Made by a program: the position numbers and the translations under genes. A stretch of 35,583 nt of DNA, taken from positions 1 to 35,583 of the IMG/VR virus record IMGVR_UViG_2711768048_000005; one strand, 5' to 3'. Shown here piece after piece: positions 20,062 through 35,583 of this stretch. The stretch comes from a virus (lineage: Duplodnaviria; Heunggongvirae; Uroviricota; Caudoviricetes). Under the pieces are notes generated by a model. That model searched no databases, was not told the origin of the DNA, and saw only the letters and a program-made list of their open reading frames with translations. Positions within the stretch are counted from its first letter, which is position 1. Each line of letters opens with the position of its first letter.

Positions 20062-20532
20062 TTAAAAACGCGCTAGATAAGAAAATTTAAGGCTAAGTGT
20101 CCCAACGATACCCCCATCACTAGAATCATCGTCATAATCGGTATTAGAGGCTACTGGAGTGATATCTGAAATAGAGAAGCCCAAATCTTTAAATCGTGGG
20201 TTATCCGGCTGAATCTGGATTATCTGGCAAATACCCTCATGAATTTTCGTTTCATGAATCTGAGAATATAACTGCATTTCGATAACGCATTCAGCTTGGA
20301 TTGCATTACCGCCACGAACACGCGTATAAGTTTCATTCATTCCAGTAATCCAACAAACCACATCATCACTAAAGCCTTGCTGAGTTTGTTCTACGTTTAA
20401 AGCCAGACCTAAATCTTGTTCGATAATATCTTGCAAGGCGCGTTTGATTTTCAGTCTAGGCATGTTATTAACGGTAGCGAGCATGTGTACCCCCTGCCAG
20501 AGTAATAAAGCAATCAGTGGTATTATCACCAT
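20062..20532 (-). CDS. head-tail connector / tail completion protein (positional call)
   Basis: Small ORF between capsid and tail genes. Track start overlaps the upstream gene, so the true start is probably internal. Confidence 0.35.
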   Translation of the reverse strand: MVIIPLIALLLWQGVHMLATVNNMPRLKIKRALQDIIEQDLGLALNVEQTQQGFSDDVVCWITGMNETYTRVRGGNAIQAECVIEMQLYSQIHETKIHEGICQIIQIQPDNPRFKDLGFSISDITPVASNTDYDDDSSDGGIVGTLSLKFSYLARF

Positions 20533-24523: not shown

Positions 24524-25018
24524 TTATCGCGTAAGACGTAATTTGATATTTTTAATCGGGCTAATTCCCTGTTTACGTCGTTCGGCTTGAATTAATTTAG
24601 ACAGTTGACGTTCATAATCAGTCTTTAATTGCTGGAGAACACCTAATGACTCATAGGCGAAAGTATTCCCTTTCACGGTCATTTGAGATAATGCGGCTTC
24701 GTCCCCAGATAAACGGGCGAAAATAACTTGCTCGATTGTGGCGATAGTTTCCCGCAGATATTCTTTTTTGGATTGTTTGGCGAATACTGGCAAAACAGTT
24801 AATTCCTGCATTGATACCAGTTCTTCTTCCAAAGTGGTTACGATGGTATATTTACCTTCGGCAAAATCTAAGGTTTTAATCTCATGATTAGCCGGAGAAT
24901 CATCAACCTGATAGATGATACCTTTATTATTTCCTACCTGAATTGTTACACCCTCTTCATTCGCCAGCGTGATTTTTTCGCCTTTACGAATTACTAAGGG
25001 AATTAGTTCTAAACTCAT
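24524..25018 (-). CDS. hypothetical head-morphogenesis protein (164 aa)
   Basis: Track ORF between terminase and portal. No motif recognised. Confidence 0.4.
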   Translation of the reverse strand: MSLELIPLVIRKGEKITLANEEGVTIQVGNNKGIIYQVDDSPANHEIKTLDFAEGKYTIVTTLEEELVSMQELTVLPVFAKQSKKEYLRETIATIEQVIFARLSGDEAALSQMTVKGNTFAYESLGVLQQLKTDYERQLSKLIQAERRKQGISPIKNIKLRLTR

Positions 25019-25090
25019 AATTACCCCTTATTTAATTGTTATTGGATTAACAATATTTAGGAGTAAGCCGCCCCGAAGGACGGCGAGTTA

Positions 25091-26995
25091 TTAGAACGAT
25101 GTTACCCAGCTACGGCCTCTATTTGGGCGTCTGGCGATGTTTTTACGTTGTGGTCGTGTGATTGGCTTAGTTTCTTCGATTTGCTCGTTAGATTGCGATT
25201 TAGGAGCTTCTACGGATTCTTCTGGTTCACGGTTCAAACTATCTTTGATGGCTTCGAGTTTTTCCCATGACATTTTATTGAGTACATGACGAGAAGCAGC
25301 ATAGGAATAAGCCAGGCAGTCCAACGCTTCGTTTCGTGTTTGTCCAACTTTTACCCAACGTGTGGTATTACCCTGCCGTTTCAACTGTTCAGAAAGCAAT
25401 TGCTCGCAATAGTCATCAGGAACGTCACCAATCTGGAAGACAGTGTGAGGATCGCCATCTCTCAAGTTCCGGTTAATCATTTCACGGATCATCGTTTTAA
25501 GGTTGTTTACGCCCAGAATTTTAAGGGTAAAACCACCCGTTCTTGTGTCTTTTACCGGAAGGATTGGTGCATCAACATTGCTTGCGCCTTTAATGGCGGT
25601 TAGATTTTGCCACCGACTACAGAATCGATAGATCACGTTTGTAGCTCGTCCGTTCGATGAGTCCACGAAAGCAGATAACATCGGGATTCGTTCACCGGAT
25701 CGGGTATAGAATTTAGCTTTCAGGAAGTTGTAAAGCTGGTTATATGCTGGTGATTCGTGGCGTTCGCAGTTCACATCATAGAATGATCGGTGATCAACTA
25801 CGCATAGCCCTTTACGAGAAATACCCAGCAAGGTAGATTCCAGACGGTCTTTTTGCTGGTCAACTCCACCTACCAGAGCCAGTACATCATCAGGAATATT
25901 GTCTAGGCTAATATCAGTTTTCAGCGTTTCCAGTTCGTCGGCTGTGCGATCTTCGTTAAGATCATCGAAGGTTTCACCGAGCACCACATTATAGAACGTT
26001 GCCAGCGACATATTCGCGTAGCTATCAGCAAAGTCCACCACACACGCACGGATAGAACTAAACGGAGACATAAGGCGGTTAGCATGAAAACCGATTACTT
26101 CCGCATTTGGTTCGGTGGCGACCCATTCCCCCTGAGCAACAGCACGGAGGCGATCTGGTTCTGACCAATCAGTTTCACATGACGGGCAACGGTAAACGGC
26201 TGTGTCTGGATTCGGCAGTGATTTACCATTGATTACATGCCAATCAAAGAATACTCTACTCCATTCCATTACGTGTTTGTGTCCGCAATGCTGGCAAACG
26301 ACGTGGTATTTTCTTTTATCCGAGAGTTCCCATTGTTGGTTTATCGCCCCATCCCGCGAAGTTGGAGTAGAAGCAATTACGATCCTTGCATCATCACCGA
26401 AAGTGGTTGCGCGTTGTTCCGCTAGCTGGATCGGGTTCCCTTCGTCTGACTCATCAGCCGCATCAACTTCATCCAGAATAATCAAAGGCAGTGTCTTACC
26501 GCGCAAGTGTGATGGACTGTTCAGCGACATGAAATACATGAATGATCCGTTACGAAGCTGAATAATCGATGAGTTGTTAACGGCATTGCGATCTGATTTG
26601 TCGGTGATCATCGCCTTTAATTCTGGGGTTGCCTCTAATACTGGCTTCACCTTACCCGCAATCCATGAGTTCAATTCTCGAACGTTCGCTTGCAAAACAC
26701 CGATATTAGTAGGGTTACTGGCGATCCTGTGAAAGATAATACCGTTTAGCACAAGAGTTTTACCCAACTGCGCCGAGCACTTTAGCACAATTTTTCGCCT
26801 ATCTTCGGTGATCGCGTCCATCATTCCACGTTGGAAGGGATGCAACTTAATTAGAGATCCGGCTTTAACACCATCGGTTGCAACTACATTAGCCTCTACC
26901 CATTCGCTAGGTTTCATCGTTTTAGGTGGGCGAATTGCCGCAGAGATATTTTTAAGAATCTTTTTTAATTTGGCCTTATTAGAAATCAGTTTCAT
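25091..26995 (-). CDS. terminase large subunit (GpA-like)
   Basis: 634 aa. N-terminal ATPase with Walker-A-like LKCSAQLGKT; Cys cluster CQHCGHKH...YRCPSCETD as in GpA-type terminases; C-terminal nuclease-sized region. RBS GAGGGT upstream. Confidence 0.85.
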   Translation of the reverse strand: MKLISNKAKLKKILKNISAAIRPPKTMKPSEWVEANVVATDGVKAGSLIKLHPFQRGMMDAITEDRRKIVLKCSAQLGKTLVLNGIIFHRIASNPTNIGVLQANVRELNSWIAGKVKPVLEATPELKAMITDKSDRNAVNNSSIIQLRNGSFMYFMSLNSPSHLRGKTLPLIILDEVDAADESDEGNPIQLAEQRATTFGDDARIVIASTPTSRDGAINQQWELSDKRKYHVVCQHCGHKHVMEWSRVFFDWHVINGKSLPNPDTAVYRCPSCETDWSEPDRLRAVAQGEWVATEPNAEVIGFHANRLMSPFSSIRACVVDFADSYANMSLATFYNVVLGETFDDLNEDRTADELETLKTDISLDNIPDDVLALVGGVDQQKDRLESTLLGISRKGLCVVDHRSFYDVNCERHESPAYNQLYNFLKAKFYTRSGERIPMLSAFVDSSNGRATNVIYRFCSRWQNLTAIKGASNVDAPILPVKDTRTGGFTLKILGVNNLKTMIREMINRNLRDGDPHTVFQIGDVPDDYCEQLLSEQLKRQGNTTRWVKVGQTRNEALDCLAYSYAASRHVLNKMSWEKLEAIKDSLNREPEESVEAPKSQSNEQIEETKPITRPQRKNIARRPNRGRSWVTSF

Positions 26996-27038
26996 GTAAT
27001 TACCCTCATTACGAAATATGAAGGTATTTATTAAATTG

Positions 27039-27066
27039 TTGATATTTTGATAAATACGGATATTAA
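27039..27066 (+). promoter_or_regulatory. candidate sigma70 promoter (TTGATA-16-TATTAA) for the repeat-containing gene
   Basis: Hexamer match only; it would place the transcript start very close to the SD, so weak. Confidence 0.25.
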
Positions 27067-27082
27067 GATTTAAGGGGGGTGT

Positions 27083-27196
27083 ATGCTAATTAATCAGCAA
27101 GAAAGAGATGAATTAGAATTAGCCTTGTCTTGTCTTGTCTTGTCTTGTCTTGTCTTGTCTTGTCTTGTACCGATCATGAATATCGTTTGCCAGTAA
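27083..27196 (+). CDS. leader ORF: ATG with strong SD reading through (CTTGT)9 and stopping out of frame (current OFF state)
   Basis: SD AAGGGGGG then ATG 27083. The frame passes through the repeat and ends at TAA 27194-27196 (37 aa). It is in a different frame from the 196-codon ORF. Confidence 0.35.
   Translation: MLINQQERDELELALSCLVLSCLVLSCLVPIMNIVCQ
27124..27168. repeat. perfect pentanucleotide tandem repeat (CTTGT)9
   Basis: 45 nt of nine uninterrupted CTTGT units read directly from the sequence. Confidence 0.95.
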
Positions 27197-27720
27197 AACA
27201 TAAGCACTTAAAGACTGATTACACAACATCTGGCTTTAGTCGTGAGGAAGCGAAAGAGATTTTAATAGAGTTTTACCGCGATAATGGTTATACAGACGTT
27301 CACAACTTCTTTAAGAAGCATAGAACATCACATACAGAGTTTCGGAGAGTCCGAGAATGGTTTGATTTTGATATCAAGCGTTATTATCGAGTGGATGACG
27401 GTCCAATCTATCGGTTGCAGTGGAAGCCGATCAGGGAAGTGCTTAAACAGAAGAGATTGAATCATGCCATTACACGCTATCGTAACGTGGCTTTCAAGAA
27501 AGGCTATGGTGATACAAGGGAATTGTTTGTAGAACTCGCTAACGTGCGATATAGCCACTATTACAGGAATCCTAAAGAGTTCTTCGAAGTGCTGCGCAAG
27601 GTTGATATTAGTCGGGGTACATATTATTCACGGTTGAAGAAGTACGGGATTAAGGCAGAGTTCTTTATGTCGGTTGACGATGGAGAACTTTTTCCGATAA
27701 AATGTAAGTCCTCTAAATAA
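27130..27720 (+). CDS. 196-codon open frame with no in-frame ATG (candidate phase-variable gene; basic, Tyr/Arg-rich product)
   Basis: Track ORF begins at a TTG inside the repeat. Its C-terminus shares a motif with the two small paralogues (27756-27980, 31052-31231). Confidence 0.45.
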   Translation: MSCLVLSCLVLSCTDHEYRLPVKHKHLKTDYTTSGFSREEAKEILIEFYRDNGYTDVHNFFKKHRTSHTEFRRVREWFDFDIKRYYRVDDGPIYRLQWKPIREVLKQKRLNHAITRYRNVAFKKGYGDTRELFVELANVRYSHYYRNPKEFFEVLRKVDISRGTYYSRLKKYGIKAEFFMSVDDGELFPIKCKSSK

Positions 27721-27722
27721 AG

Positions 27723-27980
27723 GTGAACATTCACTTTAATTTGGAGAAAATGACTATGACTACTAAAGCTACTCGCGGTCGCCCTGTCCGTTTTAATCGT
27801 GAACAACTGGCAGCGATTGTAAAAGCGTACTATCAAGCGCCGAAAGGTAAAGCCGAAAAAGAACAAGTATTGAGTGAACACGGTATTTCAATTGCTCAAT
27901 TCTACAAATCACTCCATAAAGTTGATTTGAAATTCTTTGTTCAGGTTGACGGTGAAATGGTAGAAGCAACAGGAATTTGA
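27723..27980 (+). CDS. small putative DNA-binding protein, paralogue A (likely start ATG 27756, 74 aa)
   Basis: RGRPVRFNREQLAAIVKAYY...GISIAQFYKSLHKVDLKFFVQVDGE aligns with the product of 31052-31231. Terminator follows. Confidence 0.5.
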   Translation: MNIHFNLEKMTMTTKATRGRPVRFNREQLAAIVKAYYQAPKGKAEKEQVLSEHGISIAQFYKSLHKVDLKFFVQVDGEMVEATGI

Positions 27981-27986
27981 TTCTCT

Positions 27987-28017
27987 AGGCCAATCCTTCG
28001 GGGTTGGCCTTTTTTTA
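27987..28017 (+). terminator. rho-independent terminator
   Basis: aggccaatcc-ttcg-gggttggcct followed by ttttttt. Confidence 0.65.
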
Positions 28018-28084
28018 TGCACATGCGCTTAAAGTTCAGCGCATCTATATTCTTCCGACAAATCCAAATCTGGATGCACCAAAT

Positions 28085-28109
28085 ACAAAAAGCCCCTGAA
28101 ATTCAGGGG
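28085..28109 (-). terminator. rho-independent terminator for the Rha-like gene
   Basis: gcccctgaa-a-ttcaggggc hairpin with a T-tract on the minus strand. Confidence 0.6.
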
Positions 28110-28117
28110 CAAAATTA

Positions 28118-28960
28118 TTACAGTCCGAAGACTTCCAGTGATCCAGCATTCTGACGAATCAGCAAAGCGGTATTATTGACGATTGCTCGCGAGTTATTCG
28201 GTTGTGGCAATTTCAAAGTTGCGGCTTTTTCTTCTTCAAGCAATCCGAGTTTTACAAGATGCGGGATAGCATCAGCAGTGAACTCAATCTGACCGTGTGC
28301 CGACATACGAGCGAACATATAGCCAGGAGGAAGCAGATCATAGCCTTTAGGCTTACCAGAAGCATCCAGACGACGCTCAAGAACACCAGCAGCACATAAA
28401 CCTTTCAGAATCATTTGTACCTTCGTAGAGCCTCGTTTTTCGCCTAATAAGCGGCTAAGACTGTGTGTGTCGATAGCTTTACGAACATGCAATTCAACCA
28501 GTTGTTTCTTTTCTTGAATCAGTTGTTCGTTTGCGGCTTCCAATTCCATTGCCTCACGAATCCAGTCGAGCTTAGTCATGTTTGCGTAAGGGTTGATTTG
28601 CTGAGAACGCAGTTTTTCATTTTCTTCTTTCAGTCGCTTCCATTCCTGAATAACAACCATTCGACGCTTAACATCGTAACCAGTGACAAGAGTCAGCGTC
28701 ATTTCTTCGTCTAAGTGATATACTGGTTCTTTAACAGCATATCCTAAGTTATTGATTCTCTCGACAAATTCAGTTTTGAGCTGATCGATAATACCTAAAG
28801 ATTCGTACATTTCGCGAATATCGCGCATTATATTGCTGTGCTTCTTATCGGTAAATTCAGCGATCTGACGAGAAGACATGGTCAGCGGTTTGGTGTTATC
28901 AACAACCAGAGACACAGAAGCAGTTTTAACAGCAGTATTCATAGTAGTAACAGTATTCAT
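28118..28960 (-). CDS. phage regulatory protein Rha-family (antirepressor-like)
   Basis: N-terminal segment LTMSSRQIAEFTDKKHSNIMRDIREM matches the conserved Rha-family N-terminal motif as I recall it. Confidence 0.65.
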   Translation of the reverse strand: MNTVTTMNTAVKTASVSLVVDNTKPLTMSSRQIAEFTDKKHSNIMRDIREMYESLGIIDQLKTEFVERINNLGYAVKEPVYHLDEEMTLTLVTGYDVKRRMVVIQEWKRLKEENEKLRSQQINPYANMTKLDWIREAMELEAANEQLIQEKKQLVELHVRKAIDTHSLSRLLGEKRGSTKVQMILKGLCAAGVLERRLDASGKPKGYDLLPPGYMFARMSAHGQIEFTADAIPHLVKLGLLEEEKAATLKLPQPNNSRAIVNNTALLIRQNAGSLEVFGL

Positions 28961-29050
28961 AGTAAAATCCCCCTTAAACGGTTTTGCGATTTAATCCTCC
29001 CTGTTCCGGCAGCATCACCGGAACAATTTTATTTATAAGAAGTTTTTATC

Positions 29051-29197
29051 TCATTTAGATTCAGCAATCGCGCGATCAATTTCTTCTTGAATGCGACGCT
29101 GGCGTTCATGGAAGTCAACCATTGAGAAATTCAGGTTTGGGGTCCACGGTTTGCGGTTCGGGTTTTTACGTCCATCAATTTTCTTAGTAGTGTTCAT
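29051..29197 (-). CDS. small basic protein (48 aa), speculative
   Basis: ATG with AGAGGG 9 nt upstream; product MNTTKKIDGRKNPNRKPW...; sits between a predicted promoter and the Rha-like gene. Below the track cutoff. Confidence 0.25.
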   Translation of the reverse strand: MNTTKKIDGRKNPNRKPWTPNLNFSMVDFHERQRRIQEEIDRAIAESK

Positions 29198-29255
29198 AAT
29201 TAACACCCTCTTTACAAATCTAGGTCAAGTAGGTTCAAAGTTGTCAAGTGCGATA

Positions 29256-29283
29256 ATCATAAAAAAGTCATAAAATTTGTCAA
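29256..29283 (-). promoter_or_regulatory. sigma70-like promoter on the minus strand (TTGACA-16-TATGAT) with flanking palindromic operator-like sites
   Basis: -35 TTGACA is the reverse complement of 29278-29283 and -10 TATGAT of 29256-29261. Flanked by TTGTCAA-N6-TTGACAA (29277-29296) and TAGGTCAAGT (29221-29230). Confidence 0.5.
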
Positions 29284-29318
29284 TACTCCTTGACAAGACG
29301 CCAAAGGGTTGACCTAAC

Positions 29319-29786
29319 TTACAGCATATCTAAGCCTTCGTCGTAACCGTAGAAGCCATTCTGAGAAGAGAAACAGATTGGTGCGTAGTCGTCGTCATCT
29401 TCGTCTTGTTCATCTTCTTCTGGGGCTTCCTGAGCGGTTTCTTTGCCGTAGTTAAACATTGCTTCATCCAGTTCATAGACAGTAACGAAGCTACCCAGAT
29501 CAATGTCACCGGAACGAACTTGAAACGGCAGATCATCACGAACAATAATTGCTGGTAGATTCTGGTACTTTAAGCGTTCTTCATCGGTGAAGACGTTAAC
29601 AACAATGGTCGGCTTCTTATTACGGCAAAACGCATACCATGCACTAGAGAAATGAGATTCATCAGAGTTGAAAAGAATGTTGTAACCACGTTCACGGAAC
29701 ATCTTCATTAACTTGTCATTGTGGAAGCTATCAGCATCAAAACCTAACAGGATGAAAGGAGTAGTGGTAGTCATTTTATGGTTCAT
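29319..29786 (-). CDS. hypothetical protein with acidic C-terminal tail (155 aa)
   Basis: Track ORF with RBS AGAGGA; C-terminus EEDEQDEDDDDY. No motif recognised. Confidence 0.45.
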   Translation of the reverse strand: MNHKMTTTTPFILLGFDADSFHNDKLMKMFRERGYNILFNSDESHFSSAWYAFCRNKKPTIVVNVFTDEERLKYQNLPAIIVRDDLPFQVRSGDIDLGSFVTVYELDEAMFNYGKETAQEAPEEDEQDEDDDDYAPICFSSQNGFYGYDEGLDML

Positions 29787-30361
29787 AGTGGAAATCCTCT
29801 AAAAGAAAGTGAATCAATCTAATATTATTTATAAAGAGAAAATTCTTGTTATTATGAAAAGAGTGATTGTATTCAGTCGGGCAAAGCCCTCCTTCATGAT
29901 TTGATTAAATCATCATCAAAACGAAGAAGTATCTTTAGAATATAAGAATCTTTCTTTTGGAGAAATAATAATAATCAGGAAGCAATTTAGCAACCGAAGG
30001 TTGCAATCCCGAAGGGATACCAATACCTTTCTAGAAAGTGATTGTTACTCACTTCGTTCGTTTACTAGAATCAGTTAGTAACTAGTATTAAATCCCTTTC
30101 TAAGAAAATCCTTTCAAAAGCGAGTGAACGCCGTAGGCGTGAACGTGAGCGAAGCGAACTATCCAATCCCTTTCGAATCCTGCTTGCAGGTCTTAGAAGG
30201 TGTTGATGGGCGCTTCGCGCACGGCTACGCCGTATTCTTTTTGCGAGATCTTTCTTGAACGTAGTGAGAGAAAACGAGCAAAAAGGAGAACGTTAGTTCG
30301 AATTTTATATTCTATGGTCTGTGGGGTGAAATGTCTTTCAAGATCATACAATTATGAGATT

Positions 30362-30486
30362 GAAGTGTAGGGTTAGTGTAGGTGTGTAGGTTTCATAGTG
30401 TAGGTTTGAGGGTGTTATAGTGTAGGTTTACTGGCTAGTGTAGTGTAGGCCAATCCCTTTAAAGCGTAGGTTTGTAGTGTAGGTTT
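30362..30486. repeat. iteron-like array: about 8-9 copies of (TA)GTGTAGG(TTT) at irregular 8-23 nt spacing
   Basis: GTGTAGG (one copy GCGTAGG) read at about 30365, 30376, 30384, 30398, 30420, 30442, 30465 and 30475, with a partial GTGTAG at 30437. Lies inside a 1.25-kb stretch with no ORF of 60 aa or more in any frame. Confidence 0.7.
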
Positions 30487-30680
30487 TTCATCAAAAATTT
30501 TGATAGAAAATCCTTGTGTATTATTTAACCGGAAAATCACCAAAAATCGCTGTAAATGCATGATTTAAAAAGAATTATCAAAAGGTCGCCGTGCTATAAT
30601 AGGTTATAAAGGTTGATAATCGTTATCCGCCATTTTCACATAAAAATTTTGATAGTCATTTCTCGCTTAGGTCAAGTGTA

Positions 30681-30709
30681 TTGACAACTGTCAAGGATTA
30701 TTTTATACT
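30681..30709 (+). promoter_or_regulatory. near-consensus sigma70 promoter (TTGACA-17-TATACT) overlapping a palindrome TTGACA-AC-TGTCAA
   Basis: Hexamers and spacing read directly. The same TAGGTCAAGT 10-mer (30668-30677) occurs at 29221-29230. Confidence 0.6.
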
Positions 30710-30844
30710 TTTTCTCTTTGATAGGGGTTGAAATTTTCGAAACAATCCCCATATTGATGATAAGCAAGATTTTTTCGTGTATAAATACATGCATGAAATG
30801 ATTGTTCACTTCTGAAAATCCCCTGATTCACTGTTAACACATAC

Positions 30845-30872
30845 GGCACTGGTTAAACATACAGTGCCTTTT
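30845..30872 (+). terminator. intrinsic terminator/attenuator in the leader downstream of the 30681 promoter
   Basis: ggcactg-gttaaacata-cagtgcc followed by tttt. Confidence 0.45.
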
Positions 30873-31036
30873 CGATTGAATAATGTACGAATTGATTAAT
30901 TATTAATCTTCTCTTTAGCAATTCGTGCTCCCACTGATCAGATATACAGTGGTTTTACAGGGTTTTCTGAAATGACTTTTATAAATAGAAGTATCGAGGG
31001 CGAAAAGCTCTTTTTATTGTCCTTATTAATCCACAT

Positions 31037-31231
31037 TTGAGGAATCTACTTATGGCTAGACCTGTTAAGTTTACTCGTGAAATGATTGTTGATATTGCTA
31101 AACGCTTTTATGGCGATACTGAACGAGGCGGCGAGAATTTCTTTAAGAAGGAAGGAATTGATAGAAGCGGATTCTATAAGCTAATGAAGAAATACGAAAT
31201 TCAGATAAAGATTAACGTTCAAGTTTGTTAA
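31037..31231 (+). CDS. small putative DNA-binding protein, paralogue B (likely start ATG 31052, 59 aa)
   Basis: MARPVKFTREMIVDIAKRFYG...GIDRSGFYKLMKKYEIQIKINVQV aligns with the product of 27756-27980. RBS GAGGA 8 nt upstream. Confidence 0.5.
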   Translation: MRNLLMARPVKFTREMIVDIAKRFYGDTERGGENFFKKEGIDRSGFYKLMKKYEIQIKINVQVC

Positions 31232-31347
31232 TCCACTTTCACTGAGAATTATATGATGGCTTTAAAAATAAAAAGCCTCCCTTGTTGCAGCAAAGGAGGC
31301 TTGAAATGAACAATTAAAACTAACACAGCATTCAGGAGTATTTATAA

Positions 31348-32349
31348 ATGAAAAATTCTAAGCGCATCACCTTCAACCTGTTTATTAAATCCAACGGCAA
31401 ACTGAACATTACCGTCATGGAAGGTAAAGCAAGCAAACAAGACAAATCCTTTGAAGTAGTATCCGGTAAGACTCTGACCGAAATGCGTCAGAATGCTGGC
31501 ATCAAAGACGGTGCTGAATGGCAGATCACTAACCGTTTCGACAAACGTCACGTTAAACCTACACTGGTAGAAGGTGAATCCGTTTATTGCTTCGCTCGTG
31601 CTGTTAAAGCCGATGAAACTTACTATCTCGCTGTTGTTAAAACTGCTTCCGGCTTCCGTGCTGTAATGCATCACAAGAGCAAGCGTAACGAATACGGCGT
31701 AGAGACCCAGGAAGTCGCAAAACGCTTCCGTACTGTTGCTACTGAATCCACTGTAAAGGATGTTTCTGGTACTGTTAACACCGCTAAAGGCGGTTCCTTC
31801 TACAACCACGCATTACAGGTTACTTCCTCCTTCTTCTGCAAAAAAGAAGCACAGAAAGAAGTTGCTCCGGTAGTAGTTGAAGAAGTTAAAGAAGAAGTTG
31901 CAGTGGTTGAATCTTCCGAAGTTGAAGCACTGAAAGCACGCATTGCTGAACTGGAAGCTGAAAACGCATCTCTGAAAGCTGAACTGGCAGCGCAGGAAAC
32001 CACTTTCGAAGTAGCAGCGGTTGAAGTTGAAGCAGTTGAAGAAAAATCCATTGATGAAGAACTGGAAGAACTCCTTAACTATCGCTGGGGTAACGGTGAA
32101 AAAGTAGAACAGGAAGAACAGAAAGAAGCTGATCCGGTAGTAGTTCCGGTTGAAGAAAAATCCGCACCTGTTACTAACTTTGAATCCCTGCGCAATAACT
32201 TTATGGCTAAATTCAAAACCACTTGGGAAGATACCGAAGAAGAACAAGAAGAGATTGAAGTAAACGAAGACGAGATCCGCGAAGCACAGATGGCACTGCA
32301 TGACGCTATCTACGACACCAACTACAGCGCCTACGCATACGCAGCTTAA
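31348..32349 (+). CDS. hypothetical protein, basic N-terminal domain plus long acidic coiled-coil C-terminal half; strong codon bias
   Basis: 333 aa with RBS AGGAG. Codon choice (cgt, ggt, ctg, tcc, acc, gaa, aaa) looks like highly expressed E. coli genes, unlike its neighbours. C-terminal half is E-rich. Confidence 0.6.
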   Translation: MKNSKRITFNLFIKSNGKLNITVMEGKASKQDKSFEVVSGKTLTEMRQNAGIKDGAEWQITNRFDKRHVKPTLVEGESVYCFARAVKADETYYLAVVKTASGFRAVMHHKSKRNEYGVETQEVAKRFRTVATESTVKDVSGTVNTAKGGSFYNHALQVTSSFFCKKEAQKEVAPVVVEEVKEEVAVVESSEVEALKARIAELEAENASLKAELAAQETTFEVAAVEVEAVEEKSIDEELEELLNYRWGNGEKVEQEEQKEADPVVVPVEEKSAPVTNFESLRNNFMAKFKTTWEDTEEEQEEIEVNEDEIREAQMALHDAIYDTNYSAYAYAA

Positions 32350-32364
32350 TAGAGGGGTGAATCT

Positions 32365-32607
32365 ATGATGAATCAAAACAAAGAATTTCTGGGTAATCTG
32401 ATGTTAGAAATTACCAGAATGAAAGAAAGAATGGTAGCGATGGAATCAGAGATTAAAACTCTTAAAGCTGATAATAAGGCGTTGAGAAAGTCCTTAAAGC
32501 TGATTGATGAGACTAATGCGGTTATGATGGATCATGTATTCCCTGAGTGGCGAAATGAAACTAAACCTACACAACATAAGAAACTTACACTTCGAATTGT
32601 TGCATAA
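32365..32607 (+). CDS. small coiled-coil protein (80 aa)
   Basis: Track ORF 12 nt downstream of the previous stop, with a GAGGGG RBS. Confidence 0.45.
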   Translation: MMNQNKEFLGNLMLEITRMKERMVAMESEIKTLKADNKALRKSLKLIDETNAVMMDHVFPEWRNETKPTQHKKLTLRIVA

Positions 32608-32632
32608 AAAAAAGGGACTCCGAAGAGTCCCT
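32606..32632 (-). terminator. terminator (A8 / agggactc-cgaa-gagtccct)
   Basis: Hairpin with a T8 tract on the minus strand. Ends minus-strand transcription coming from the terminase small subunit side. Confidence 0.55.
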
Positions 32633-32709
32633 AGTAAGTTTAGGTTAGGTTTGCACAACAAAGATGAGGTTATAATGAACATAATGCTACATTATTCTTT
32701 AAAGCCAGA

Positions 32710-32733
32710 AAAATAACCGCCCCGAAGGGGCGG
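32710..32733 (-). terminator. GC-rich hairpin terminator (ccgcccc-gaa-ggggcgg)
   Basis: Stable stem with a T-rich tract on the minus strand. Confidence 0.5.
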
Positions 32734-32882
32734 GAGGATTAATACTCAATCTATACTTGTTATGTTTTTGTGTTGTATGGATCACTGACTATGAAAACAC
32801 TGTTTTTATGGCTTTTAATCGGGAACTCTCTTTCGAAAATTCCCTGTTAAAACCACATAAGGAGAAAAGGCAGATTACAATA

Positions 32883-33056
32883 TTATTTAGTGTCTGATTT
32901 ACAGCAACTAAAAAGAATAAACAGGATTAAACATACCCAGCCGTAAGGCGTACCGATTAGAAATTTGAAAAACACCACCAGCGATATAAAAATCAATTTA
33001 ATGCCAGCGACGATAGTCAAAAACAGCAGAGTAGCAAAGTAGACAAAAAGATCCAT
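32883..33056 (-). CDS. small two-helix membrane protein (57 aa), speculative
   Basis: ATG with GAGGAT upstream; product MDLFVYFATLLFLTIVAGIKLIFISLVVFFKFLIGTPYGWVCLILFILFSCCKSDTK is highly hydrophobic. Below the track cutoff. Confidence 0.3.
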   Translation of the reverse strand: MDLFVYFATLLFLTIVAGIKLIFISLVVFFKFLIGTPYGWVCLILFILFSCCKSDTK

Positions 33057-33109
33057 AGATAATCCTCTTTGAAAACGACCATCATCTATAGTTCAATTCA
33101 TCGATTTAA

Positions 33110-33211
33110 TTAATGATACTTGAAAGCATTACACACAGCAGAAATGCCAATGTGAGCAAATGAATATACGATAGTTAATCCTACAGCCAGATAAATCAAA
33201 AATTCAACCAT
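33110..33211 (-). CDS. small hydrophobic peptide (33 aa), speculative
   Basis: ATG with GAGGA 8 nt upstream; product MVEFLIYLAVGLTIVYSFAHIGISAVCNAFKYH. Confidence 0.25.
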   Translation of the reverse strand: MVEFLIYLAVGLTIVYSFAHIGISAVCNAFKYH

Positions 33212-33241
33212 AGGTAAATCCTCAAATAAGAAAAAGGTTAG

Positions 33242-33260
33242 CGGGGGATGTTCTCCCCCG
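33242..33260 (-). terminator. hairpin terminator downstream of the terminase small subunit candidate
   Basis: cggggga-tgttc-tcccccg with a T-tract on the minus strand. Confidence 0.45.
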
Positions 33261-33307
33261 TAGACGTTGACCATCAACATCTTTCATACATTTATTTATA
33301 ACGCGTT

Positions 33308-33862
33308 TTAAGACACATCAAATTCATCGTCTTCTTCTGGTTCTTGTTCCGGTTCATCCATTAATGGTAATTCTTCTTCCTCGTCTTCTCCCAAATCAGC
33401 ATTTTCGAACAAGTCCCCTACTTCATTTAAACGACGCTCGATGATCTCCCTTAGCTTATTCTTCAATGTTTTCTGATCGGTAGCAGATTCGAGAATTTCT
33501 AAAGCATCGATCGTACAAATCTGCAAGATAGTCTGCTTCACCTTCCCACAATATTCAGCTAGCTCCTGTTCTACATAACCGACCGGAATCAGGAGGTTCA
33601 TCGCTTCCTGGTTCTCTCGTTCGGCTGCATCTGCTAAAGCACGTTCACGGCGTAATTTCTCTACATCGATTTGTTCTTTGATAGAAGTTTGTTTAAGCGG
33701 GTTGATAATATTTTTCAAGACCCATTCTGTTCCTTCTTTGGCTGGCACGCGGCGGGTATTGGTGTTAAATGGCAATCCCCTTTCTATCCATCGCTTAGCG
33801 CCACCATTCAATGAATAGCCGTATAAACGGGAAATTTCTGTAAGGGTTAATTCTTCTTTCAT
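33308..33862 (-). CDS. terminase small subunit candidate (Nu1-like HTH protein)
   Basis: 184 aa. N-terminal HTH-like segment (LTLTEISRLYGYSLNGGAKRWIERGLPF), central EKLRRE motif and acidic C-terminus, matching lambda Nu1 architecture as I recall it. Unusually, it is 6.3 kb from the terminase large subunit. Confidence 0.5.
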   Translation of the reverse strand: MKEELTLTEISRLYGYSLNGGAKRWIERGLPFNTNTRRVPAKEGTEWVLKNIINPLKQTSIKEQIDVEKLRRERALADAAERENQEAMNLLIPVGYVEQELAEYCGKVKQTILQICTIDALEILESATDQKTLKNKLREIIERRLNEVGDLFENADLGEDEEEELPLMDEPEQEPEEDDEFDVS

Positions 33863-34220
33863 TGGTTATCCTCCATTAAATTTGCGTAATTTTATTTATT
33901 GGTTTTACGCACAATCTAAGCGCCTAAATCGCATTCTAACGAAGGGAAAGATCCAGTAATGGTAAGGGTTAGGAAGTGGGTTAATAGTCGCGTAGCGACC
34001 GCGCCATGAGTGAAGTGATCACGTTTTAGATCCTGACGCGCACATGAAACACCGCCGTGCCGAAAACTCCCTTTATTTCATCCGTGGAACAGTACCTTTT
34101 TAATTTGTCAAGCATTAATTTCTTAATTTAATTACTAAATCTCATCCCAATAATTGAAAAAATATCAAAAATCAATAAAGTAAGCATCTAAAAGTCAGTC
34201 CATACCAAAAGAGGTATAAA

Positions 34221-35000
34221 ATGAAAAACATTATCGCTGCTATCGTGCTTTCTGCTACTGCTTTCGGTGCTGATGCTGCGTCCTTTGATTGCACTAAGGC
34301 TACTACCAAATCAGAGAAGTTTATTTGTGCTAACGAGTCTATCTCCGCGCTGGATTCTAAACTCCATGAGGTATATGTTAAGGCTGTTAAGATTGATCCG
34401 TCGCTTAAACAAGAGCAACGCAACTGGAATAAAACTGTTCGTGATACAATGATCAATATCGGGCAGATTCAGCCACTGGAGGCTGTATACAACGCTCAAA
34501 TCCAAAACTTGATGAATGTATTATCTAAAGAAGAAACCGCGTCAGAGAGCGATTCAGAGACTTCTGCGAAGGTTGAAGAAGAACAACCGAAACAGGAAGA
34601 AGTAAAGAAACTGAATGTTACCGCGATTTACGCATGTACTACAAAATTTACATGGAAAGTTATCGATGGTGAGGAAACAGAAGCTGTAAAAGATAAACTC
34701 TACGGAAACAAAACTTTTGATAATAACGGCGGTAAACTTAAGATCAAAATGGTAGACGATGTTCCGGTATCTTTTGTGTATTCCGACAAGTATGATGTTT
34801 ATAAATCAAGTCTCAAGCCATCTAAAGAGAATCCAAACGCAATGGAAGGTAAATCCAAACAGGATACTATTGGACGTGTTAACACTTATAACATCTGGGT
34901 AAGCAAAAAAGGTGACATGCGTCTTGAAGTAATTGAACCAAAATTTGATTCTGAATATAAACACACTCAATTTGCATGTGACATGGTAGACGCAGAGTAA
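34221..35000 (+). CDS. secreted protein with N-terminal LprI/DUF1311-like (lysozyme-inhibitor-like) domain; moron
   Basis: Signal peptide MKNIIAAIVLSATAFGADA. The following FDCTKATTKSEKFICANESISALDSKLHEVY resembles the Cys-containing LprI-family N-terminal motif. Confidence 0.55.
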   Translation: MKNIIAAIVLSATAFGADAASFDCTKATTKSEKFICANESISALDSKLHEVYVKAVKIDPSLKQEQRNWNKTVRDTMINIGQIQPLEAVYNAQIQNLMNVLSKEETASESDSETSAKVEEEQPKQEEVKKLNVTAIYACTTKFTWKVIDGEETEAVKDKLYGNKTFDNNGGKLKIKMVDDVPVSFVYSDKYDVYKSSLKPSKENPNAMEGKSKQDTIGRVNTYNIWVSKKGDMRLEVIEPKFDSEYKHTQFACDMVDAE

Positions 35001-35008
35001 GAGGTGAA

Positions 35009-35089
35009 ATGATGCAATTCAATAGCATGAAGATTACTCAAAAATGGTGGGATGCGATGAAAGCTAACCACCAGAACGATATTAATTAA
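35009..35089 (+). CDS. small ORF (26 aa), speculative
   Basis: Strong RBS AAGAGGTGA then ATGATG; product MMQFNSMKITQKWWDAMKANHQNDIN. Confidence 0.2.
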   Translation: MMQFNSMKITQKWWDAMKANHQNDIN

Positions 35090-35232
35090 GTAACATTTTA
35101 GATATACAGCACCCAGCTAACAGATCACCTTTTATGGATTTCATTATAACCCCTTTGATCTGGAAACTATGTTAATTAGTTGATTTCTAAGCCTTGTCCT
35201 TGTGATGGGGCTTTTTATTGCAAAATTTTTAG

Positions 35233-35583
35233 TTATTTTGGGTTGACTACATTCGGGTTGCCAATTCGCCTGGCTAACTCTTGCTGAGTGATTTCTGACT
35301 GTAAAAAAGCATTTAACAGCAATACCTTAGAGGCGACGCTCAAAGGTACTTCAATAAAGTGATCGTGACTATTTAATGGCGAAGGTAAAGGGATAAGCTC
35401 GTTATCTTCAAAATAAAAATCAAATGCGGTCAGTAAAGCATCTTTTGCCGCTTCCATCGCTTCAGCGACAGTTTCGCCCTGGGTCAACGCTTCAGGGATA
35501 TCCACAAAAGAAACCATATAACCGCCTTCCGGCGCGGGTGTAAGAGTGACGGGATAACGCATAATTTCGACTGTCTCTCGCAT
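35233..35583 (-). CDS. hicB: HicB antitoxin, 3'-truncated at the prophage junction (host gene; real start MRYPV at about 35562)
   Basis: Translation MRYPVTLTPAPEGGYMVSFVDIPEALTQGETVAEAMEAAKDALLTAFDFYFEDNELIPLPSPLNSHDHFIEVPLSVASKVLLLNAFLQSEITQQELARRIG matches E. coli HicB as I recall it, then diverges into NPNVVNPK-stop at about codon 101. Confidence 0.75.
   Translation of the reverse strand: MRETVEIMRYPVTLTPAPEGGYMVSFVDIPEALTQGETVAEAMEAAKDALLTAFDFYFEDNELIPLPSPLNSHDHFIEVPLSVASKVLLLNAFLQSEITQQELARRIGNPNVVNPK

Follow-up and report, generated by a model that had tools for sequence, protein, structure and literature searches.

Lambda-like terminase genes separated by a conserved 6.3-kb region with lineage-specific iterons in an enterobacterial prophage

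The DNA analysed here, hereafter the window, is the 35,583-nucleotide IMG/VR virus record IMGVR_UViG_2711768048_000005 (Caudoviricetes), which at 35.6 kb is essentially one complete E. coli prophage of ~35 kb. Its terminase genes, one for a large subunit (TerL) of the lambda gpA type and one, very probably, for a small subunit (TerS) of the Nu1 type, do not adjoin and stand at the two ends of a 6.3-kb interval of mixed orientation. We consider it likely that this interval is the native early region of the phage, which splits the lambda-like terminase genes and carries an array of short direct repeats (iterons) together with a 333-amino-acid (aa) protein that binds them. Such an early region would consist of two divergent pairs of genes of a helix-turn-helix (HTH)-like family, a variable slot occupied by a Rha gene, a control region free of open reading frames (ORFs), and the gene for the 333-aa ORFan, while the packaging enzyme would be a lambda-like two-subunit terminase made of a gpA-type TerL and a Nu1-type TerS from non-adjacent genes.

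The terminase genes and the interval between them

The large subunit holds both gpA domains (Pfam GpA_ATPase, PF05876, E = 1.4e-59; GpA_nuclease, PF20454, E = 3.3e-45) and is named 'terminase gpA endonuclease subunit' in RefSeq. In regard to the small subunit, the 184-aa sequence of the window matches the PHROG family phrog_57, 'terminase small subunit', with E = 1.2e-11 over residues 2-169. Homologs of this protein were found only in E. coli, Shigella, Salmonella and Proteus, and 14 of them, with 51-92% identity, were aligned; phrog_57 is matched by all 14 (best 1.3e-22), Pfam Phage_Nu1 (PF07471) by eight (best 8.6e-5), and a second small-subunit family, phrog_141, by five. The family was also compared with the annotated small subunits of two phages, Paracoccus phage Pyei1 and Escherichia phage ECO1230-10, whose gpA-type TerL is distantly related to that of the window and whose TerS lies directly upstream of it. 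The hhalign alignments, with 88% probability and E 3e-6 over columns 6-153 (145 columns) for Pyei1 and 93% probability and E 3e-7 over columns 6-143 (132 columns) for ECO1230-10, both take in the HTH and the central helical region. A PDB profile search with the family gave 11 matches, all below threshold, three of which were chains named terminase small subunit, over the N-terminal region; lambda gpNu1 (1j9i) was among these sub-threshold matches with E 0.15. The AlphaFold2 model, with a mean pLDDT of 71, is made up of a small strand-helix-helix-strand unit, a helix of 49 residues, more helices and a disordered acidic tail, which predicts a layout of N-terminal winged HTH, long helix and acidic tail. 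The gene that follows TerL matches a head-tail joining family, and no other TerS candidate is present in the prophage. Some sources already call homologs of the protein 'terminase small subunit', and RefSeq labels most copies 'hypothetical protein'. Taken together, the family profiles and the profile alignments make it very probable that 33308-33862 encodes the small terminase subunit; they uphold the Nu1-like candidate of the initial annotation, and the doubt attached to it there, that the call might be wrong, finds no support in them.

In nearly all tailed phages the terminase genes adjoin each other on one strand (PMC3488191), in agreement with the premise from which the initial annotation set out. 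Both genes of the window are on the minus strand, and the gap between them, described there as a 6.3-kb region of mixed orientation, measures 6312 bp (26996-33307) and contains four direction switches, in the order TerL (minus), 27084-27980 (plus), 28118-29786 (minus), ORF-free 29787-31036, 31052-32607 (plus) and 32883-33862 (minus). This gap is no artefact of prophage permutation, since the att sites lie at the ends of the window and the distance the other way round a circular genome would be ~29 kb.

The same arrangement recurs in every relative examined, that is in 25 distinct loci, which come from E. coli, Salmonella, Proteus and a Logan assembly (L045) and have gaps of 5.6-7.4 kb. In IMG/VR, 22 loci carry this TerS and 13 this TerL, and the nine contigs with both have them 6.05-7.16 kb apart. 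Distant relatives, in which TerS identity is 54-58%, keep the order as well, with gaps of 6.5 kb in Salmonella (L040, L041), 5.6 kb in Proteus (L039) and 7.4 kb in L045. Read from the TerS side, their shared order is TerS, a gene of ~320-390 aa and one of ~60-70 aa on the opposite strand, an ORF-free stretch of ~1.4-1.6 kb, a gene of ~150 aa, usually a Rha gene, a gene of ~200 aa (usually with a 74-aa partner) on the opposite strand, and TerL. In L046, a second Proteus-like contig that stops before TerL, the part of this order nearest TerS is present. Only Rha, the small membrane ORFs, the alleles of the cassettes and insertions of insertion sequences (IS) or mcr-1 vary within the interval. 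Within this lineage the terminase split is fixed; adjacency was probably the ancestral state, as TerS directly precedes TerL in distant gpA-type phages.

Since the core genes and their order are kept in all relatives across three genera, the interval is not an inserted island. Its presence is not patchy, and its composition does not deviate, as the G+C content of the prophage is ~0.41-0.42 throughout, far under that of the host, and that of the interval is 0.34-0.43. Scans of the prophage proteins against family libraries recognised no replication, repressor, antiterminator or defence family anywhere in the element, and the Rha gene and HTH-like paralogs lie inside the interval; together with the prophage-like composition, this is why the interval is read as the early region. 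As part of the overall explanation we judge it likely that the interval is the lineage's own conserved early control and replication region and no recent or accessory insertion.

TerS lies in a transcription unit of its own, 6.3 kb upstream of TerL, which is closed by two strong intrinsic-terminator-like hairpins (Table 1). Terminator-like sites number 16 in the region against 6.4 +/- 2.3 in shuffled sequences, with others closing inner units, and a conserved hairpin is found just 3' of the TerS stop (~33262-33244). The terminators had been noticed in the initial annotation, as had the small membrane ORFs that follow TerS; the latter are indeed present in the window, but they are full length in only about half of the relatives, are left unannotated in RefSeq and belong to the variable cargo. 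On the other side of TerS, the ~260-bp non-coding region is 78-86% identical between relatives even where the cargo upstream of it differs, and its motif blocks (GCGGTGTTTC, GCGGTCGCTACGCGAC and the inverted repeat) are common to Salmonella, Proteus and L045. This region is a candidate for the cos site and probably also contains the TerS promoter, so that TerS, in a short terminator-closed unit, would stay linked to its probable DNA target. TerL would head the late block from a promoter of its own in the 88-bp divergent region. Since the two subunits would, as in lambda, come together after translation, adjacency of their genes may be dispensable.

The iterons and the 333-aa protein

The ORF-free region was already described as carrying iterons, and these were found as seven copies of GTGTAGG, all in the same orientation, a heptamer that occurs nowhere else on the plus strand of the window. 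A stretch of 80% A+T (30487-30527) follows directly, so that same-orientation repeats with helical phasing, at multiples of ~11 bp, stand beside an AT-rich region, as is expected of an origin; no integration host factor (IHF) consensus site was found. An ORF-free stretch of ~1.2-1.6 kb occupies the same position in all relatives and has no Rfam match. Leftward promoter-like sites lie at 30337-30302. To the right of the iterons, the best sigma-70-like promoter of the region is overlapped at its -35 element by the palindrome TTGACAACTGTCAA, and a block TTGAC...CAAGGATTATTTTA is invariant in a three-genus alignment of E. coli, Salmonella and Proteus. This promoter would drive the genes of the 59-aa, 333-aa and 80-aa proteins.

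The pairing of the iterons with the 333-aa protein was followed through the mosaic relatives, in which the large gene of this slot was sorted into four types of N-terminal domain over the 25 distinct loci; the slot gene of L045, a fifth allele of 386 aa, was left out of the typing. Type A, that of the window, goes with the dominant iteron GTGTAGG (6-9 copies), type B, a 313-319-aa allele, with CAGGGGCA (4-8 copies), type C, found in L009, with CGGGGA (14 copies), and type D, found in Salmonella and Proteus, with TAGGGAT (13-16 copies). The N-domain types thus pair one-to-one with the iteron types, four against four. The four proteins share the same architecture and are distantly alignable. In contrast, one and the same TerS N-terminus can accompany type A or type B iterons, and the alleles of the 59-aa and 155-aa proteins assort independently of iteron type, even though the 59-aa gene sits between the iterons and the 333-aa gene. 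The pairing survives recombination on both sides of this intervening gene, which argues for functional coupling rather than mere linkage. Since its N-domain type tracks the iteron sequence, and neither TerS nor the intervening gene does, the 333-aa protein most likely binds the iterons. Its N-terminal domain would determine which iteron sequence is present, and the protein is probably a replication initiator or organiser; it would act at the iterons as the origin of a replicon that otherwise depends on host proteins.

A role of the iterons as TerS (cosB-like) binding sites was ruled out by the identical TerS N-termini found with different iteron types. The possibility that the 333-aa protein ends in a conserved Ala-Ala degradation tag was also considered and dropped, since the type B allele has a different C-terminus. 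In L009, two tandem 333-aa genes occupy the slot of the iteron-binding protein (680-2710).

The gene of the 333-aa protein is the most codon-optimised of the window, as had been noticed from the sequence. With a list of codons optimal in E. coli, its frequency of optimal codons (Fop) is 0.85, the highest of the 39 ORFs ranked; the major capsid gene is second with 0.70, and most others lie at ~0.4-0.6. The other allelic types reach 0.71-0.76 in E. coli and Salmonella and 0.59 in Proteus, with 0.41-0.53 for TerS and TerL in the same loci. Such a value suggests that the 333-aa protein is very highly expressed. Searches with the protein gave no match in Pfam, PHROG, NCBIfam or PADLOC, and no homology to the Rep, O or RepA families of initiators. 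PADLOC likewise had no match for the 155-aa and 80-aa proteins or TerS, and marginal matches only for Rha. The evidence ties the 333-aa protein to the iterons more than to the anti-host role first suggested for it. Among 1.84 billion representatives searched with the N-terminal domain, six matched at E<=0.001, and of these only P0194 and P0196 align over most of the domain. A profile of all allelic types returned 608 matches, the best 120 of which are all hypothetical proteins that carry no Pfam domain and come from Escherichia, Shigella and Salmonella. In these searches the family is restricted to the lineage. The AlphaFold2 model is weak (mean pLDDT 53, with 72-89 reached in residues 30-100) and has no significant fold match. 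The 80-aa protein encoded downstream shows only weak bZIP/YabA-like coiled-coil matches.

Further features of the interval and the prophage

Table 1. Features of the window, with positions counted from its first nucleotide.
Feature	Position	Strand	Remarks
Small genes without assigned function	left end of prophage		
Large serine recombinase	1488-3182		Pfam Resolvase, Recombinase, Zn_ribbon_recom
Endolysin, tail fibres, tape measure, tail proteins, protease-capsid fusion, portal, head-tail joining protein, TerL	between recombinase and 6.3-kb interval	minus	one block
TerL, lambda gpA type	25091-26995	minus	first gene of the head-tail-lysis block
Divergent control region, TerL/200-aa gene	26996-27083		88 bp; inverted repeat GTATTTAT-N17-ATAAATAC, read from sequence
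~200-aa protein	27084-27720	plus	two copies of ~55-aa HTH-like domain; ATG 27084 after Shine-Dalgarno AAGGGGGG
Pentanucleotide repeat (CTTGT)x9	27124-27168	plus	perfect; in 5' coding part of 200-aa gene; Tandem Repeats Finder (TRF) 9.0 copies, 100% match
74-aa HTH-like protein	27756-27980	plus	paralog of 59-aa protein; RefSeq 225-nt coding sequence
Rha-family regulator/antirepressor	28118-28960	minus	Pfam Phage_pRha (PF09669) 6.5e-12; PHROG anti-repressor families 1e-16
51-aa ORF	29051-29206	minus	upstream of Rha; from ORF list; annotated in RefSeq; in many, not all, relatives
155-aa protein	29319-29786	minus	acidic C-terminus; first gene of leftward unit; conserved core gene
ORF-free control region	29787-31036		1.25 kb; on the left conserved CTTTCTAGAAAG-type boxes and hairpins, then iterons, AT-rich stretch, rightward promoter
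Iterons	30365-30483	plus	seven direct copies, core GTGTAGG (fuller form TAGTGTAGGTTT); spacings 11, 8, 14, 22, 23, 34 bp
Rightward promoter, sigma-70-like	30681-30709	plus	TTGACA-17-TATACT; 11/12 consensus positions
59-aa HTH-like protein	31052-31231	plus	Cro-like position; first gene after rightward promoter; RefSeq 180-nt coding sequence
333-aa ORFan	31348-32349	plus	beta-rich N-terminal domain (~residues 1-175), coiled coil, acidic tail
80-aa coiled-coil protein	32365-32607	plus	only in loci with type A slot protein
Terminator-like hairpins	32733-32717 (7 GC pairs), 32632-32613	minus	close the TerS transcription unit
Small hydrophobic ORFs, 57 and 56 aa	32883-33056, 33110-33280	minus	downstream of TerS; from ORF list
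TerS, Nu1 type (very probable), 184 aa	33308-33862	minus	same strand as TerL
Non-coding region upstream of TerS	33863-34120	minus	~260 bp; G+C-rich motif GCGGTGTTTC 34055-34046, GCGGTCGCTACGCGAC, inverted repeat TGCGTAA...TTACGCA
LprI-family (lysozyme inhibitor) gene	34221-35000	opposite to TerS	between TerS and attR

The HTH-like genes of the interval form a family of their own. The 59-aa protein is paralogous to the 74-aa protein (BLASTP E 7e-9) and to both halves of the 200-aa protein, the E-values that place it in the family being 7e-9, 2e-6 and 4e-4. Its members share the motif RPxxF-RE...GIsxxxFYKxLKKY in a ~55-aa phage-specific domain with weak similarity to the Fis/Hin-type HTH. Terminator-like hairpins follow the 74-aa gene (27987-28010) and the 59-aa gene (31273-31302), and the divergent region between TerL and the 200-aa gene, with its inverted repeat, would function as promoter and operator.

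The 200-aa protein is present family-wide, with identities of 87-97% to the E. coli relatives and 69-72% to those in Salmonella and Proteus, and an intact coding sequence of 200-201 aa is annotated in the E. coli genomes DEC5A and C325. The initial annotation had listed it as a repeat-containing gene; the repeat is present, while the start had to be corrected to ATG 27084 and the gene is frameshifted here, since the nine copies of CTTGT shift the ATG frame into a TGA at ~27177. Among 24 distinct sequences, that of the window included, 16 have two copies, six an interrupted variant, one relative seven copies and the window nine; the two-copy and interrupted variants are in frame, and those with seven and nine copies are out of frame. 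The tract could be a slipped-strand on/off switch or a plain disrupting expansion. A second unstable simple repeat, of the GCGTAGGCG type, is expanded in L006 (9-mer, 6x) and L037 (11x) at the equivalent of ~30125-30145.

In the leftward unit, the 155-aa protein has no match in any family library, and positional orthologs of its gene exist in Salmonella, Proteus and L045, in at least three allelic types. The match of the Rha gene to Phage_pRha lies above the Pfam threshold, which bears out its initial description as a Rha-like antirepressor, and a terminator lies beyond it at 28110-28092. Rha identity is 41-98% among E. coli relatives and DEC5A has a different protein in the slot, which marks it as variable cargo. 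Here the Rha family thus fills a variable slot and is no core part of the interval.

Several further repeats and motifs lie in or near the ORF-free region. Palindromic CTTTCTAGAAAG-like boxes (30029, 30098, 30172; equivalents in L039 and L040) are conserved between E. coli, Salmonella and Proteus, unlike the lineage-specific iterons, and are a candidate site for a conserved regulator. A stretch of ~75 nt (29900-29977; L042 1501-1573), which holds an inverted repeat TTTGAT...ATCAAA, matches, at 81% identity, an intergenic segment that is unannotated in RB49-like T4-type coliphages and is found in 56 phage records. The sequence TATAAATA occurs seven times in the window against 2.4 expected, a number reached in 1/100 shuffles; one copy lies at 978 and six lie within 29030-33300 (29030, 29826, 30780, 30980, 31339, 33293), these mostly 15-70 nt upstream of early genes. 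A reading of these as T4-type late promoters was set aside, and they are probably ordinary -10-like elements in AT-rich DNA. Rfam had no RNA family at gathering thresholds in the window, and none at E<=1 in 26900-34300. ARAGORN reported a 91-nt tRNA-Glu (anticodon ttc) at 20207-20297 on the plus strand, inside the minus-strand structural gene 20062-20532; it has no Rfam support and is probably a false positive.

As for the element as a whole, its structural, lysis and integrase gene sets are complete, and as part of the same explanation the prophage is likely of a temperate siphophage type, integrated into hicB by the large serine recombinase. Near-identical copies are found in the RefSeq genomes E. 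coli O55:H7 DEC5A, FDAARGOS_946 and C325, inserted in the toxin-antitoxin gene hicB; DEC5A and FDAARGOS_946 are 98.3% identical to the window over 25000-35583 and 99.9% over 31037-33862. The N-terminal part of hicB is at the right end of the window (35233-35583) and a C-terminal remnant just left of position 1. The N-terminal part is joined to a short phage-encoded C-terminus, which makes a 116-aa ORF with hicA adjacent (window 35233-35583 and left end; L037, L038). Past ~34112 the sequence varies in many relatives, so that the position of the LprI-family gene appears as a cargo slot. The lineage, which occurs in E. coli, Salmonella and Proteus, is one without a cultured member, and at least 64 of the 5426 complete E. 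coli genomes carry its family. A tblastn search with TerS against cultured phages, scans of genome contigs with the TerS alignment and with the TerL protein, and a literature search by protein accession all returned no match. The nearest TerL in any cultured-phage record, at 44% identity, belongs to Escherichia phage DCP80 (L001, PQ671644.1), where it sits with portal- and capsid-sized genes at 1-13 kb of a 141-kb record classed as T4-like Straboviridae; no Nu1-type gene lies upstream of it, and the record may be chimeric. In two E. coli genomes (H86, NZ_CP041628.1; H88, NZ_CP044443.1), mcr-1.1 flanked by ISApl1 lies within the matched prophage region, one of them with ISKpn26 as well, and IS421, IS3 or GIY-YIG nuclease insertions are found in the matched region of other genomes, so that the element is a landing pad for mobile DNA.

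Alternative readings and comparison with known systems

Several observations weigh against reading the iterons as an origin bound by the 333-aa protein. The protein resembles no known initiator, and its predicted expression is above what is usual for initiators; iterons between divergent promoters would equally suit an immunity repressor/operator system; and a single 8/9 match to a DnaA box, at 31027, weakens the origin. As regards the explanation as a whole, the TerS sequence of the window by itself has no Pfam or NCBIfam match above threshold, the window copy of the prophage may be impaired because the conserved 200-aa gene beside TerL is frameshifted, and the phage collection holds no cultured member of the lineage.

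The 184-aa protein could instead be a MerR/excisionase-like DNA-binding protein, for example the recombination directionality factor of the serine integrase or a transcription regulator, with the true TerS unrecognised or absent. The best Foldseek matches of its N-terminal domain (RacA, the RdfS excisionase, BldC and Pukovnik Xis, all non-significant with E>1), matches of two of the 14 family members to phrog_66, 'excisionase and transcriptional regulator', the missing Pfam match of the window sequence and a position near the prophage end, where excision functions often sit, would fit such a protein, but the homology to small subunits is near full length and extends beyond the HTH into the central helices, eight of the 14 match Phage_Nu1, and nothing else TerS-like adjoins TerL or occurs in the prophage, so that this reading is a minor one and we regard it as improbable. 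The length and the predicted order of winged HTH, long helix and acidic tail also fit Nu1, which in lambda has 181 aa. The separation itself could be the result of an accessory or moron island inserted between originally adjacent genes, in line with the probable ancestral adjacency and with the cargo that varies in the interval (the Rha slot, the small membrane ORFs and, in some genomes, inserted IS or mcr-1). From the initial proposal that an accessory or regulatory module had been inserted here, the regulatory, early character stands, while the insertion is contradicted by core genes and an order that hold across three genera with TerS identity down to 54%, and by a G+C content equal to that of the rest of the prophage. 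Moreover, without the interval the prophage would be left with structural, lysis and integration genes only and no other candidate for an early, replication or control region; an inserted island is thus very hard to credit. We find it just as implausible that the split is a meaningless scar of an inversion or rearrangement in a defective prophage. The frameshifted 200-aa gene, the IS insertions in several genomes and the want of a cultured representative would agree with a decaying element; however, all 25 distinct loci, spread over three genera, show this arrangement, their ORFs intact and their proteins 54-100% identical, which points to purifying selection on layout and genes, and the structural, lysis and integrase sets are complete. 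The layout expected of an ordinary early region is indeed shared by the relatives, while the conventional replication genes that were to be expected with it are not recognisable.

That the iterons and the 333-aa protein serve immunity or regulation, the protein being a repressor or activator that defines hetero-immune types, or that it is some other abundant DNA-organising or anti-host protein without any origin, has to be taken seriously, even if we hold it to be unlikely. The array has the leftward promoter-like sites on one side and the strong rightward promoter on the other, the rest of the prophage contains no recognisable repressor, codon adaptation this high is not typical of initiators, and the acidic tail and coiled coil are unlike any known Rep or O family. 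In the immunity regions of lambdoid phages, a specificity protein and its sites are typically exchanged as one cassette. On the other hand, operators are usually palindromic, and seven same-orientation repeats at multiples of ~11 bp beside an AT-rich stretch are more origin- or centromere-like than operator-like; a separate conserved palindrome already overlaps the rightward promoter, and the prophage offers no other origin candidate. An initiator or organiser that acts at the iterons thus remains our preferred explanation of the pair. As a further, tentative possibility, the lineage may represent an undescribed phage replicon (or replicon-plus-immunity) design, in which lineage-specific iterons and an abundant ORFan family of at least 4-5 specificity types would replace all conventional phage replication proteins, and in which cos-TerS would be deliberately uncoupled from the TerL late operon and TerS placed on a different expression schedule.

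Compared with known systems, the prophage shares its rare non-adjacency of terminase genes with a few phages. In P2, the terminase genes M and P are split by capsid genes. In the Yersinia phage PY100 (ORF2/ORF18) the two genes are widely separated and on opposite strands, and in the Pseudomonas phage PaP3 (orf1/orf3) they are separated by a lysozyme gene (PMC3488191). Unlike those of PY100, the genes of the window are on the same strand; the separator is a complete early/control region with four strand switches instead of one lysis gene (PaP3) or capsid genes (P2), and the terminase is of the lambda gpA/Nu1 type. Split terminase genes are therefore rare but documented, and what is new here is the lambda-type terminase, the shared strand and the whole early region in between.

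The terminase resembles lambda gpA and gpNu1, with both gpA domains in TerL and a TerS that is of Nu1 type by profile and has the predicted succession of winged HTH, helices and acidic tail. In lambda, cosN and cosB lie upstream of Nu1, and in the window G+C-rich motifs stand in the conserved non-coding region ~130-230 bp upstream of TerS, where cos is a candidate only. Nu1 and A of lambda are adjacent and co-transcribed in the late operon, whereas the genes of the window are 6.3 kb apart in separate units with the early region between them. In a similar way, the iterons and the 333-aa protein recall the O/ori modules of lambdoid phages and the RepA modules of iteron plasmids, in that direct repeats lie beside an AT-rich stretch, the N-terminal domain co-varies with the repeats and the pair is swapped as a unit. 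Still, the protein resembles neither O nor RepA nor another known initiator in sequence or fold, the iterons are not inside or beside its gene but ~0.9 kb upstream of it, with an independently assorting gene in between, a P-like, DnaC-like or helicase partner is missing, and expression is predicted to be unusually high. The pair works like O/ori or Rep/iteron modules and is not a member of their families, as no homology to them was found.

The locus is a clean natural example of terminase subunit genes that need be neither linked nor co-transcribed, and annotation pipelines which seek TerS only beside TerL miss a TerS of the kind found in the window. The gene split itself is less notable than the ORFan-iteron pair and the unrecognisable regulatory and replication functions, which are of main interest: an uncharacterised enterobacterial prophage lineage is defined, none of whose regulatory and replication machinery is recognised by profile methods. 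The same prophage region is the landing site of IS elements and, in some strains, of a chromosomal mcr-1. Finally, the 333-aa ORFan and the iterons make up a directly testable protein-DNA pair with several natural specificity variants, and if its function is confirmed, these variants could serve as orthogonal DNA-binding or replication parts.

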